This document shows, piece by piece, positions 1 to 43,930 of a DNA stretch of 43,930 nucleotides. Position numbers and translations under genes: made by a program. Position 1 is the stretch's first letter. Every line of letters begins with the position of its first letter. This stretch comes from Escherichia phage phiHAO78-1. Below the pieces are notes generated by a model, which did not search any database, was not told the DNA's origin, and saw only the letters and a list, made by a program, of their open reading frames with translations. The DNA is taken from sequence record PP197160.1; one strand, given 5' to 3'.

Positions 1-16
1 CCCGCCCTGCCAGACA

Positions 17-94
17 CCCCCCCCCCCCCCCCTACAGCCTAGCTGGGCTGGTTAGAATTTGAAATATTGAACAGCAATTAGGTCAACAACAACC
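17..94. repeat. Left copy of terminal direct repeat (poly-C tract of 16 followed by 62 identical bases)
   Basis: Positions 33..94 are identical to 43869..43930; both are preceded by a long C homopolymer (16 C here, 14 C at the other end). The 16 bases before the C tract are also similar (12 of 16) to 43839..43854. Confidence 0.7.
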
Positions 95-192
95 AAAACA
101 ACAAAGCCCACAAGGAGGAAAGGAGCCGCCGGTGGACTTCGCTGACTCAATACCATTCTGATGATAAAACTAACCACCTCCGAAGCGGGGTT

Positions 193-2127
193 TTATATTA
201 AACCATACACTGCATTGTGTATTGTTAAACTGCCAATCGAGGTCCCAACATTAAAGTTCACCTCAGCCTTGTATGCTCCTTGAGGGACTGAATCCACTAA
301 AGCATAAAAATTGAATGTGTCTCCTACTGGGATGTTATACCCTATGGAATCTGCGACAGCATTCCCAGCCTGATCAAGGAATCTAATGGACGCTTGGGCG
401 GTTGTTGAATTTTTAGCCCAAAAACCAAACTGGAAATATCTACCAGGCTCACAATCAATAACCGATTGGGTGAAGTTAGCTGAAGCATCAGAGGATGGGA
501 CATCAATAACTATTGATGTTGAGAACATAAGGTCGTTAGGTACATCATTGTTATATGATGCCGTAACAACACCTGCTCCAGTTTGAGCTAATGACCAGTT
601 AGATATAGACAAAAACTGACCTGAGCCGTTGCTTAAACTATTTATAAACGGACTAACTATTGCACCTAAATCCCAGTTAGTTGTTATAAACCCTGCTCGA
701 GGGAAGCAACCTCTGGATATAACTTTGCGGCTAGAGCCTCCAATTAACTGTCTAGTAGGGAATCCAGTGGCAATAGTAGCGTTCCCGTACAAAGGCAGGG
801 AGCAATTACTAAGAATAACTACACCATCACCATTACTTACCACAGGAACAGAACTAAATCCGTCAGGCAGGAGTACTGTTGAGTCTTTGATGCTTAATCT
901 TGAACTCCCTGCAACGGTAAAACCAACAAAACTCTGGCCAGGCTGATATTCTATATTTCCGTTGGAAAAAACAACCGTAGCATTATCAGATAGTGCTATA
1001 GTAGGGTCAAAATAACCTGCTTTCTTACCAGCAGGAAGTGAGCAAGATTCAAAAATAAATTGTCCATTCTTGAATGTAAACGGGCCTCCATTATCTACGC
1101 ACCAGCAATGGTTGAATTTTATAACTTCGCCAGAGTTAGCTGGTGAATTGAAAATAACAGAATCTGTAAAACTTCTTGACAACGTACATTTATCAAAAAG
1201 GATACGATATGCATTATCAAGAAACTCAATTCCGGCAGTTGAGATAAACCCACTATTAGAGATTCTTAACTCTGATACTTCACCACTAGTAGAACCACCG
1301 ATAGCCAATTTCCTGGAACCTTTTCCGACGAATGACACGCCACTCATCAAAGCAGTTGCGTTAACTGCATCTCTGTTAGTGTAATCCGCGCCTGTATTAA
1401 TAATGGTTAGGTAGTAGTCACCGGTTACGGAAGCAGATTCTGTTAAAGTACATTTATTTTTTCCAATAAGCGCGCCTTTTGCTACGTCTAAAACAATAGG
1501 TGTTGTTATCTCACCAGAAACAGGGACTACACAGTCAAATCCGGCAGAGTTTATTTTGTTGATGAATACCGCCAAATCTTCGGTTCCAGTATAGCCAGCA
1601 TCATACACATCCACGGTGCCGTTGAAGAATTTTCTTTTCCATACCACCCCACTTCCTGAGAAGGTAACAATATTGTCTATAGTGGTATCCTCGCTAACAG
1701 CTACCATAATACCACCACCAAGATTAAACCCGCTCACATATGAATCAAGAATTATGGAATCGCCGATTGATCCTGATATTGATGATAACTCAGAAACTGA
1801 TGATGCAGTCCCTATATAAGATAAGCCATTTGGTTTATTTAAATCACTCCTCAGAGTAGCATCACCAACACTAACCCACGTACTAGGGCCAATACCACCG
1901 GTTGATGTAGGGGTTGAGTCAGCGGGAACAGCTTTAGGGAAAGCTCCATCCCATGTATAGCACTGGCCACCTGCAATATACCAAACAGCATCAGTATTAT
2001 TATTTAATGTAGCACCCTCCTCAAAGCTACCATCAACAAGTGTTAAACCTGCCTCTGCAAGACTACGACGCCACTGTTCACGGTCATTACCTTTACTTGT
2101 ATTATAAATTAAACCTGTAAGTGCCAT
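193..2127 (-). CDS. Tailspike / receptor-binding protein, beta-helix-like, possible polysaccharide depolymerase; no T7 gp17-type N-terminal anchor
   Basis: 644-aa ORF at the extreme end of the genome after the lysis genes; Gly/Ser/Thr/Asn-rich composition with recurring short beta-strand-like segments typical of parallel beta-helix tailspikes; start codon at 2125..2127. Confidence 0.7.
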   Translation of the reverse strand: MALTGLIYNTSKGNDREQWRRSLAEAGLTLVDGSFEEGATLNNNTDAVWYIAGGQCYTWDGAFPKAVPADSTPTSTGGIGPSTWVSVGDATLRSDLNKPNGLSYIGTASSVSELSSISGSIGDSIILDSYVSGFNLGGGIMVAVSEDTTIDNIVTFSGSGVVWKRKFFNGTVDVYDAGYTGTEDLAVFINKINSAGFDCVVPVSGEITTPIVLDVAKGALIGKNKCTLTESASVTGDYYLTIINTGADYTNRDAVNATALMSGVSFVGKGSRKLAIGGSTSGEVSELRISNSGFISTAGIEFLDNAYRILFDKCTLSRSFTDSVIFNSPANSGEVIKFNHCWCVDNGGPFTFKNGQFIFESCSLPAGKKAGYFDPTIALSDNATVVFSNGNIEYQPGQSFVGFTVAGSSRLSIKDSTVLLPDGFSSVPVVSNGDGVVILSNCSLPLYGNATIATGFPTRQLIGGSSRKVISRGCFPRAGFITTNWDLGAIVSPFINSLSNGSGQFLSISNWSLAQTGAGVVTASYNNDVPNDLMFSTSIVIDVPSSDASANFTQSVIDCEPGRYFQFGFWAKNSTTAQASIRFLDQAGNAVADSIGYNIPVGDTFNFYALVDSVPQGAYKAEVNFNVGTSIGSLTIHNAVYGLI

Positions 2128-2135
2128 TATATCTC

Positions 2136-2738
2136 CTACCCTTTCATGAGTGCATTAACAGCAGACTCAACAGAGTCATACCGATTACCAATGGCCTTTG
2201 CTTGCCACTGCCTACGTTCCCACAGACCCCAGCACACTTTATTGCGCTGCCCATTAATATACTGAGAGCAGTCAAAGGTCCAGCGGTTACCTCCCTTGTA
2301 CACCCAACCAGTGCCAGGGGACTTCTGTTGATATTTACTAATGTAACGCCAGTTCAGCACAGCCTTTCCGGCCGCAGTATAATCTAGGTGCTTGAGATGC
2401 CGCTTCACGGCACTACCATCGAAGCCAGCTACACCTACATTATAAATAAAGTCTACAGACCCTATCAGAGCCACATCAGAGAGCTGCATAGGAAGCCCGT
2501 CAAGAGCCTTAGCATGTTCCCCTGCTGATTCTATCAGTTGCTTCTGACAGTCGCTCAGAGTGGCTCTCTGGCCCATTTTGACGCCCTTTGTCTCCCCATA
2601 GCAGATTGTAGGGACGCCGGCACTATCCTTGTAGGCAGTAAGGCTTAAGCCTTCATTGTGTTGGATTACTTCAGTGATAGCCCCACCGAGCATAGTGACC
2701 CCGGCGAGGGCTGCCACAACCTTAGTCCTTAAACTCAT
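2136..2738 (-). CDS. SAR endolysin (T4-lysozyme-like, GH24 muramidase)
   Basis: N-terminal Gly/Ala-rich weakly hydrophobic segment (KVVAALAGVTMLGGAITEV) typical of a signal-anchor-release domain, followed by the lysozyme catalytic motif EGLSLTAYKDSAGVPTICYGET (Glu-Asp-Thr triad). Confidence 0.8.
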   Translation of the reverse strand: MSLRTKVVAALAGVTMLGGAITEVIQHNEGLSLTAYKDSAGVPTICYGETKGVKMGQRATLSDCQKQLIESAGEHAKALDGLPMQLSDVALIGSVDFIYNVGVAGFDGSAVKRHLKHLDYTAAGKAVLNWRYISKYQQKSPGTGWVYKGGNRWTFDCSQYINGQRNKVCWGLWERRQWQAKAIGNRYDSVESAVNALMKG

Positions 2739-42369: not shown

Positions 42370-42686
42370 GCGTTATTTCTTACTACTTACTTGGTCTTCT
42401 GTATAGCACTTCCTCGTGCGCCTTAATTTGTAGTGTTCCCACTACCACAGGTTGAAGCCTTTTAATGTGCTGCTAATCACCTAGCCTGTGTTGTTCTATA
42501 CTGCTTGTTGGCTTTACTCCGCAATCGCCCTCGCGCCTTTCTGTCACCGCGAAATGTGTAGTGACTTGTACCGGAGGAATCGGCCCCTTATCTGCGTTAA
42601 GGTTCGCAATCTGCAATTTGCACTTAGCTGATTAGTATAGTGTCTACCCGCCTACAATCCTTGTGGGCTTCTTACTGCTGGGATTC

Positions 42687-42715
42687 AATCTAGCTTATGT
42701 CCTTCGCGGTGTCAA
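42687..42715 (-). promoter_or_regulatory. Candidate sigma70 early promoter
   Basis: Minus strand TTGACA (42710..42715), 17-bp spacer, TAGATT (42687..42692), in the non-coding leader upstream of the early genes. Confidence 0.5.
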
Positions 42716-43475
42716 CTCTTTTTATTGAGTATCTAACCCTTCACACCATCTAGCTTTAATCCGGTGGAGTCTCCCGACTCTACCCCGTTCAGCACCTCAG
42801 CGCCTCCCGGTGATTGAACTATAGCGCCAATAAACCAAAAGAAGCAAGCACTTTTTTAAACTTTTTATCACTGTGAGCAAAAAGGGTAAGCAGGGCAAAC
42901 ACTTAGCCAATGCTTCCATTCTAGGGATAGCTCTAGAGATAGCCCAATACTAGCCAATGCTACTCAGTGCTAACCAATGCTAACCAACACTACACGGCAC
43001 TACATATAGCAGAACGTAGCGACGTAACGTCAGTGAAGGAGCGTAGTGAAGCGGTGACTGTGTAGGTAATGCTTACTCCCTACGGTCGTAATATAGGGCA
43101 TTACTAGGGGATACTAGTGAGTAGTAGTGAGTAGTGTGTATGTAGTGCCCTAAAACCCTCCTACTCCTGTAACATCATTTCCAAATAGCTTTCGAATGAA
43201 AGTAAGCACAAGGGATAGCGCTGGATAGTGTGGTGTGGTGGAAGTGCGCCCTAGTGGGGAGCGCGCAGCGTAGCATATAATCGGCACAATGTAAAGCACT
43301 AGCGATAGCACTAGGGATAGCACCACGGCGCACTGGGCGGCCCACTCGGCACATACTATGGCCCACTACTGGCCCACTGGGCGGCCCGCTAGAGGTCCGC
43401 AAAATAAGCAAGGCAGAGCGCACCCCTATGGCCCACAGAGAGCACGCAGAGCACGCAGAGATAACCCCAGTGCCT

Positions 43476-43515
43476 CCCAGAGCTTCCCAGAGCTTCCCAG
43501 AGCTTCCCAGAGCCT
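43476..43515. repeat. Tandem repeat, 4 copies of the 10-bp unit CCCAGAGCTT
   Basis: Three exact copies and a fourth with one substitution (CCCAGAGCCT); preceded by a duplicated AGCACGCAG unit at 43441..43460. Confidence 0.85.
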
Positions 43516-43854
43516 CTATGAGTAGCACACAGTGATAGGCGTAGGGTAGCACTAGCAATAGCCAATAAGGCACGCAGGGAGCCGCTGAGGCCTCCTAGAG
43601 CGCACTAGCTGGCCCTAACTGACCCTCCCAGTGCCCCCCCCCTCATTTATACGCTAGGCACCCCCTATGGGGGCACTGGGGCGCGTTGAGGGTGAGGGAG
43701 GGCCTCGCGTGAGTCTAACAAATTTCGAGTTCAGGTATACACCTGCCCTGGGGTGAAGTCCTTGTGATGTTCCAGACACTTCCCTTGTACCCACTTACAG
43801 ATGTCATCGTAGGAGCTGTGCTTATTCATATAATGCTTCCCGTCCTTCCAGAAT

Positions 43855-43930
43855 CCCCCCCCCCCCCCTACAGCCTAGCTGGGCTGGTTAGAATTTGAAA
43901 TATTGAACAGCAATTAGGTCAACAACAACC
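43855..43930. repeat. Right copy of terminal direct repeat (poly-C tract of 14 followed by 62 identical bases)
   Basis: 43869..43930 is identical to 33..94; the homopolymer length differs between the copies (14 vs 16 C). Confidence 0.7.

Follow-up and report, generated by a model that had tools for sequence, protein, structure and literature searches.

Escherichia phage phiHAO78-1 is represented by sequence record PP197160.1, whose full stretch of 43,930 nt (the window in what follows) was analysed for the short sequence shared by its two ends, for its gene order and for the tailspike gene that lies beside one of these ends. Every long open reading frame (ORF) is on the minus strand, so that the window shows the genome in reverse complement to its usual orientation. 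In a Megablast search of 50,697 phage records, hundreds of Drulisvirus genomes matched; the nearest records (Escherichia phages ZH5, EC22.5-2, AV102 and Minorna, Klebsiella phage KPV811, and Shigella phage SFN6B) share ~90–96% identity over 73–91% of each window half, and for 145 records the match extends over 80% or more of the first 25 kb. Local blastn against Minorna, SFN6B and EC22.5-2 gave 84–89% coverage at 85–93% identity. Judged by this similarity, which reaches the ~70% or more over most of the genome expected within the genus, the phage is a Drulisvirus (KP34-like; Autographiviridae: Slopekvirinae) with a complete genome: every genus module is present and the length falls among those of relatives (42.5–44.8 kb), in agreement with an earlier sequence-only reading that had called the genome complete. 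Roughly, the product of coverage and identity amounts to ~78–80%. As the species line of the International Committee on Taxonomy of Viruses (ICTV) stands at 95%, the phage probably represents a new species.

Matching ends and the predicted terminal repeat

The sequence-only reading had noted that the end of the window reproduces its beginning, with weaker similarity over a further 16 bp, and had offered two explanations, a partially collapsed direct terminal repeat (DTR) or a circularised assembly. Both observations stand. Direct reading and comparison of the two ends revealed positions 19–94 to be identical to 43855–43930 over 76 nt, a match far beyond chance for the two ends of a 44-kb sequence; a start at 17, as originally given, takes in a homopolymer difference, the C-run being C16 in the first copy (17–32) and C14 in the second (43855–43868). 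Past this run, the overlap is exact (33–94, equal to 43869–43930), the second copy as a whole (43855–43930) thus consisting of C14 and 62 nt. Directly 5′ of the C-run, bases 1–16 (CCCGCCCTGCCAGACA) form a degraded copy of 43839–43854 (CCCGTCCTTCCAGAAT), identical at 12 of 16 positions; these error-type bases at the contig start appear to be low-quality sequence after a homopolymer.

Read in gene orientation, the contig break is flanked on one side by the tailspike stop (193), a hairpin (174–191) and an opposite-strand remnant of the tail of a single-stranded DNA-binding protein (SSB) gene (63–158), followed by the G/C homopolymer, an HNH remnant (43854–43727) and the predicted terminal repeat (from 43698). 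The break lies 157 nt outside this repeat, on the right-end unique side. The HNH remnant (43727–43854, minus strand) comprises the C-terminal ~42 aa of an endonuclease (FWKDGKHYMNKHSSYDDICKWVQGKCLEHHKDFTPGQVYT, then stop), and in several Klebsiella Drulisvirus records the matching sequence is part of an annotated HNH endonuclease gene. The run of 14–16 C residues sits exactly where the flank of the imported tailspike meets this remnant, and its true length here is uncertain. Further long runs occur at 41705–41715 (C11) and at 43634–43642 (C9), the latter inside the predicted repeat and longer in relatives.

Continuity across the break was tested by an exact 40-mer scan of metagenome contigs, which found OGVK01002671.1, an independent contig of 2,963 bp that spans the break uninterrupted (the corresponding scan of viral contigs gave no match). 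Its order is HNH remnant, CCCAGAACCCCCACCA, TACAGCCTAGCTGGGC…, a different tailspike body and a Drulisvirus endolysin, from which it follows that both ends of the window are genuine neighbours in this lineage. At the homopolymer site, this contig reads CCCCCACCA in place of the C14–16 run, while the N4-like phage PhAPEC5 reads ACCCACCCC and carries CCCACCCC ahead of TACAGCC. Positions 1–17 of the contig (GTTTCCCAGTCACGATA) are what we take to be an untrimmed random-amplification primer of the sequence-independent single-primer amplification (SISPA) type.

Comparison with relatives predicts a direct terminal repeat of 282–283 bp at 43416–43698 (minus strand), as boundary motifs of both KP34 and fHe-Kpn01 are conserved there. 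For fHe-Kpn01, PhageTerm, restriction mapping, fragment ligation and Sanger sequencing together demonstrated a 222-bp terminal repeat with blunt ends (PMC7291057), which is also annotated in its record (MN380459); the KP34 record carries an annotated repeat of 216 bp (1–216). The records of KP34, SU503 and fHe-Kpn01 all open at CCCTCACCCTGAACG, fHe-Kpn01 one base later, and their first bases form the repeat start motif CCCTCACCCT(C/G)AACG. In the reverse complement of the window, CCCTCACCCTCAACG aligns at 43698–43684, so that 43698 or 43697, reading downwards, is the predicted left end of the genome. The distance from the strong phage promoter S2 to this point, 522 nt compared with 475 nt in KP34, supports the placement. 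At the other boundary, the end of the KP34 repeat at nt 216 (…GGGGTGCGCTC up to the boundary, TGCCTTGCTTATTTTGCG beyond it) recurs in the window as an identical string, with the boundary between 43416 and 43415; the same motif is homologous to the repeat end of fHe-Kpn01 at nt 222. The Minorna record (NC_048172.1) opens 15 nt inside the conserved left-end motif, between window positions 43683 and 43684. Neither the KP34 description nor the paper proposing the genus makes a statement on terminal repeats or on a ligase.

The segment 43416–43698 is present as a single copy in the window, which implies that the terminal repeat is completely collapsed. The unique circle measures 43,836–43,838 bp, and virion DNA of ~44,119 bp is predicted. 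Compared with the 216–222 bp of KP34 and fHe-Kpn01, the greater length of the predicted repeat is owed to short tandem arrays: it falls mostly in a 62-column alignment block with no counterpart in either phage, which holds an array of 4.8 copies of a 10-mer (43466–43513) beside a 9-mer array (43439–43460). More generally, the non-coding leader (42900–43520) is rich in short tandem arrays, such as 10-mers at 42944–42987 and 12-mers at 42920–42943 and 43295–43323, and in repeated words of the CTAGTG and GGCCCAC type. A 132-aa ORF with a GTG start (43175–43573) is probably spurious and was rejected as a gene, as it lies in this repeat-rich leader and spans the predicted repeat boundary.

From the observed overlap, gene order, promoters, conserved repeat boundaries and contiguity across the break, we infer the physical ends and the behaviour of the assembler. 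With high confidence, we read the window as a complete Drulisvirus genome in a circularised assembly, whose matching ends are an assembly overlap and whose true repeat of ~282 bp lies elsewhere and is collapsed. The virion DNA would be linear, with a direct terminal repeat of ~282 bp that most likely corresponds to 43416–43698. A short-read assembler would have fused both repeat copies, thereby closing the assembly graph into a circle, and the circle would then have been opened at an arbitrary, hard-to-sequence spot, namely the 14–16-nt C/G homopolymer between tailspike 3′ flank and HNH remnant, 157 nt outside the repeat, leaving a 76-nt duplicated end and 16 nt of error-laden sequence. Of the two explanations put forward initially, circularisation is thus the one retained, whereas a partially collapsed DTR does not fit: the overlap lies outside 43416–43698, and that segment is itself fully collapsed. 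A comparable case is provided by the related record EC22.5-2 (OR845139.1), an unannotated raw SPAdes NODE with an exact 77-nt end overlap. As in the window, a short identical sequence stands at both ends and the real repeat is collapsed; in contrast to EC22.5-2, the overlap of the window is 76 nt long, has its start in a homopolymer whose two copies differ in length, and follows 16 error-type nucleotides.

Several points weigh against this explanation. The physical ends are placed by inference rather than directly observed, and the overlap of 76 nt is not a standard k-mer length. Moreover, a PhageTerm prediction of headful packaging has been reported for the close relative Minorna (PMC6554615). 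A circularly permuted, terminally redundant genome without fixed ends would be mirrored by a circular assembly, and either mode of packaging would be just as likely to give such a graph. We nevertheless consider headful packaging unlikely. Fixed blunt ends with a 222-bp repeat were demonstrated experimentally for fHe-Kpn01, a 216-bp repeat is annotated for KP34, and both boundary motifs are kept in the window; the terminase shares 46% identity with its phiKMV counterpart, and the phiKMV record has 414-bp repeat regions at both ends. The Minorna announcement also misclassifies its phage otherwise, as a T1-like myophage (PMC6554615), which the Minorna genome contradicts, and the experimental termini of fHe-Kpn01 were given more weight than the PhageTerm prediction.

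Contig-end direct repeats are labelled 'complete with DTR' by CheckV-type tools, and on this basis the repeat of 76–94 nt might be taken for a true short terminal repeat, partly degraded or collapsed in the assembly. This is very improbable, since the shared sequence lies 157 nt from the conserved terminus of the genus, is made of a homopolymer and the 3′ flank of a tailspike cassette gained by horizontal transfer, and is read through without interruption in OGVK01002671.1; its left-hand extension is an error-type copy (12/16), and EC22.5-2 has an equivalent overlap that is purely the assembler's. Least probable of all is a misassembly in which poly-C/poly-G artefact reads bridged unrelated ends of a genome not truly closed or complete: the unequal homopolymer lengths and the fact that poly-G runs are a known artefact of two-colour sequencing speak for it, yet the same two flanks are adjacent in OGVK01002671.1 with CCCCCACCA between them, homology to HNH-bearing relatives continues into the first four C's, PhAPEC5 has CCCACCCC before TACAGCC, and neither the set of genus modules nor the genome length shows a gap.

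A direct repeat at contig ends therefore signals a closed assembly and says nothing on the real termini of a phage or the length of its terminal repeat. In the present case, homology allows the true repeat to be located ~160 bp away.

Gene order and promoters

The sequence-only reading had described a phiKMV-type gene order, with the RNA polymerase (RNAP) gene between the DNA-metabolism and the structural modules. When 28 phiKMV proteins were compared with the window by tblastn, 18 matched in the same order, among them primase, helicase, polymerase, gp21, exonuclease, endonuclease VII and RNAP on the replication side, and portal, scaffold, capsid, tail tubular proteins A and B, gp37, fibre, both terminase subunits and lysozyme on the structural side. 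The single-subunit RNAP (22142–24610, minus strand; Pfam RNA_pol at 6.6e-90, RPOL_N; phiKMV gp26 at 4e-114) indeed lies between DNA-metabolism (24752–38182) and structural genes (193–22117), with endonuclease VII and DUF3310 genes as neighbours at one end and the portal module at the other, as is typical of Drulisvirus.

With phiKMV, the window thus shares complete colinearity from primase to lysozyme, an RNAP that ends the replication block, and direct terminal repeats, which are predicted in the window. The two differ in that protein identity is only 24–46%, that the phiKMV gp17 ligase and gp16 nucleotidyltransferase are without homologues in the window, that the peptidase and the 664-aa protein described below are missing from phiKMV, and that the phiKMV lysis genes are ordered differently and its repeat measures 414 bp. 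While the phiKMV-like gene order is borne out, the phage is not phiKMV-like in the taxonomic sense (Phikmvvirus, Krylovirinae), belonging instead with Drulisvirus and lacking the phiKMV ligase. With KP34 and other Drulisvirus members, it has in common gene order and content, the spanin–holin–endolysin cassette followed by a terminal tailspike gene, the positions of strong and weak RNAP promoters, the boundary motifs of the terminal repeat, and the presence of peptidase and metallophosphoesterase together with the absence of a ligase. It departs from them in its O78/TSP4-type tailspike, in its complement of HNH insertions, five of which are intact genes, and in the predicted repeat length of 282–283 bp.

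Promoter sequences and positions of the KP34 RNAP have been defined experimentally (PMC6834552). The KP34 promoter, T(A/G)ATGTTACAGGAGTA, is present at three conserved sites in the window, a count reached by none of 100 shuffled sequences. All are on the minus strand and at KP34-equivalent positions: two exact copies of the strong promoter S1 (22121–22136 and 10065–10080) and the strong promoter S2 (43162–43177). A weak promoter with one mismatch inside the RNAP gene (22170–22189, minus strand) is likewise located as in KP34. Transcription would then proceed as in KP34, the early region being read by the host RNA polymerase and the phage enzyme, whose gene closes the replication block, subsequently driving the late genes from the three strong promoters. 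A scan of the early region for sigma-70 promoters returned no more sites than in shuffled sequences. In addition, an intergenic site at 30515–30530 (minus strand), upstream of the HNH and metallophosphoesterase genes, matches the strong KP34 promoter with three mismatches; this degenerate site may be due to chance or be a weak extra promoter.

The remaining structural, packaging and lysis genes are all on the minus strand. Synteny and tblastn served to assign the large structural genes, the family scans reported below covering other coding-strand ORFs. The lysis cassette consists of endolysin (2136–2738; phiKMV lysozyme, tblastn 2e-15), holin (2722–2973) and spanin (2966–3370), assigned by synteny with Minorna, and the order spanin–holin–endolysin–tailspike (193–2127) is that of Minorna, fHe-Kpn01 and SFN6B, a trait of the genus. 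Large (3942–5798) and small (5798–6100) terminase subunits match phiKMV gp43 (7e-170) and gp42 (4e-10) by tblastn, and are followed by a tail fibre or adaptor gene (6113–7168; phrog_2710, 4e-115) and three genes for internal virion (ejectosome) proteins (7125–10823, 10873–13557 and 13573–14211), recognised by synteny with Minorna and fHe-Kpn01 and a match to phiKMV gp37 (6e-43). Next come tail tubular proteins B (14156–16534; phiKMV gp34, 4e-87) and A (16544–17104; phiKMV gp33, 6e-22), a strong intrinsic terminator after the capsid region (17160–17183, minus strand; 10-bp stem and T run), which is annotated at the homologous site in Minorna, and, by phiKMV tblastn and Pfam, capsid (17400–18419), an HNH insert (18433–18894), scaffold (18922–19794) and portal (19809–21404). 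The HNH insert between scaffold and capsid is absent from Minorna and SFN6B. Scans of the window for tRNAs and Rfam families returned nothing.

DNA-metabolism genes, ligase and a candidate SSB

The metallophosphoesterase, the peptidase-like gene and the HNH inserts reported from the bare sequence were all recovered by PHROGs and Pfam searches. From the RNAP side, the block (minus strand throughout) comprises DUF3310 (24752–25129), endonuclease VII (25126–25548), HNH (25530–25997) and 5′–3′ exonuclease (26148–27116) genes, the metallophosphoesterase (29061–30095; phrog_221, 6.8e-111; Pfam Metallophos at cutoff) and a second HNH gene (30098–30490; Pfam). These are followed by family-A DNA polymerase (30871–33258), DnaB-like helicase (33320–34606), HNH (34603–35040) and Toprim primase (35240–36028) genes, all supported by PHROGs/Pfam and phiKMV tblastn, a further HNH gene (36703–37170; PHROGs/Pfam) and the M28-like peptidase (37151–38182; phrog_4191, 9e-142; Peptidase_M28 at cutoff). 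A 664-aa protein (38182–40176) with a Cys-rich C-terminal part belongs to phrog_6980 with unassigned function and had no Pfam or PDB sequence match. Its ORF overlaps an upstream ORF of 114 aa (39929–40273, minus strand) by ~250 nt; given the shorter product annotated in fHe-Kpn01, the start codon actually used is probably an internal one.

Five intact HNH_3 genes (PF13392 above cutoff) are encoded in total, four in the DNA-metabolism block (36703–37170, 34603–35040, 30098–30490 and 25530–25997) and one between scaffold and capsid (18433–18894); of a sixth HNH gene, only the remnant at 43727–43854 is left. Each of the five intact genes falls in a segment absent from at least one of Minorna, SFN6B and EC22.5-2 by blastn, a presence/absence pattern that fits mobile homing endonucleases, as expected. 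A family of 68-nt direct repeats (30279–30346, 34817–34884 and 36938–37005; 62–81% identity) corresponds to the CDNPRCINP-coding core conserved among three HNH_3 paralogues.

Neither a DNA ligase nor an SSB had been recognised in the sequence-only reading. For the ligase, this was confirmed: PHROGs and Pfam scans of the coding-strand ORFs examined contained no ligase family, and a six-frame tblastn with phiKMV gp17 gave nothing (best E = 4). Between helicase and polymerase, where the ATP-dependent ligase of phiKMV is located, the gap is only ~60 nt. As none of the annotated genomes of Minorna, SFN6B, fHe-Kpn01, ZH5 and NER40 lists a ligase, its absence is probably a trait of the genus.

For the SSB, the same scans again yielded no family match, as had been stated, and we propose a candidate that the initial reading had not named. 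The interval between polymerase and exonuclease contains the gene for a 289-aa homologue of phiKMV gp21 (27962–28831, minus strand; phrog_862; tblastn 1e-41) with a predicted oligonucleotide/oligosaccharide-binding (OB) fold. An AlphaFold model built with 54 homologues reached a mean predicted local distance difference test (pLDDT) score of 84. Foldseek placed SSBs at the top of the PDB list, none of them significant, and matched DUF669 proteins in BFVD at 2e-5. DUF669 has been linked to the SSB of phage N4, and one member of the family has been shown to be an SSB (PMC4889955, PMC5928155). Against such a role stand the outcomes of several searches: Pfam assigned no family, DUF669 included, to the 54 homologues, phiKMV gp21 or N4 SSB; hhalign of the 289-aa family against N4 SSB was negative (probability 0.04); and the protein lacks an acidic C-terminal tail, ending instead in an Ala/Pro-rich stretch (…APAAPVAPTAPAAPQA) that is conserved in homologues. 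A PDB sequence search returned only matches to this low-complexity tail. On balance, we give about even odds that this candidate, proposed from its modelled fold, is an SSB, and the missing family match probably reflects a divergent OB-fold protein, not a true absence.

The tailspike cassette and its 3′ flank

The tailspike (193–2127, minus strand; 644 aa) is a mosaic. Its N-terminal ~60 aa are of the Drulisvirus type, and the remainder resembles CBA120 TSP4 (PDB 5w6h, E = 0 over residues 30–644), a protein with cleavage activity on the O78 O-antigen (PMC8825819). Positions 84–1954 are 93% identical in nucleotide sequence to the tail-fibre region of ASO78B, a siphophage isolated on E. coli O78. 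SFN6B and Hope align to the window from 1910 and 1946, respectively, and most other Drulisvirus relatives only from ~2170–2218, upstream of the tailspike gene. These alignment limits, together with the TSP4 and ASO78B matches, indicate that an anchor of the genus type has been joined to an imported receptor-binding body. What is shared with CBA120 TSP4 and the ASO78B tail fibre is the receptor-binding and catalytic part; CBA120 TSP4 differs in its anchor, which is an Ackermannviridae branching module where the window has one of Drulisvirus type. By analogy with the activity of TSP4 and the host of ASO78B, specificity of the tailspike for O78 is predicted and the host is most likely E. coli O78. 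An exact-protein look-up of the tailspike in public assemblies found it not on record.

Downstream of the tailspike lies a bidirectional, terminator-like hairpin with a weakened stem (174–191), annotated as a terminator in ASO78B and PhAPEC5; RNA folding of this region in the window was no better than that of shuffled sequences. Convergent with the tailspike, positions 63–158 (plus strand) hold what is left of an SSB gene of bacterial type, its final 32 codons (…QQQPKQQSPQGGKEPPVDFADSIPF, then stop; remnant sequence NIEQQLGQQQPKQQSPQGGKEPPVDFADSIPF, ending …PPVDFADSIPF before the stop). The remnant aligns to the end of an annotated SSB coding sequence in ASO78B, where the gene is intact, and is also present in degraded form beside the tailspike genes of PhAPEC5 and OGVK01002671.1. 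In the window, it is not a functional gene; it is a footprint of the former neighbourhood of the imported segment.

The cassette, from 33 to ~1950, may have been carried by Drulisvirus, N4-like Gamaleyavirus, ASO78B-type siphoviruses and Ackermannviridae. Exchange may have used the shared 3′ flank as a recombination site, i.e. the degraded SSB tail, the bidirectional terminator and the C-rich joint, and the C-run may be a slippage-prone scar of this exchange. Separately, the gp21-like OB-fold protein, with its non-acidic Ala/Pro tail, may prove to be the replicative SSB so far missing across the phiKMV/KP34 group. We put forward this reading and that of a cassette passing between unrelated phage families only tentatively, as rather doubtful.

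In sum, phiHAO78-1 is an ordinary member of a known genus, its novelty being limited to a probable new species and a swap of the receptor-binding protein. The genus, most of whose known members come from Klebsiella, gains a probable new species that infects E. coli, and the tailspike clearly illustrates the exchange of receptor-binding proteins between phage families.

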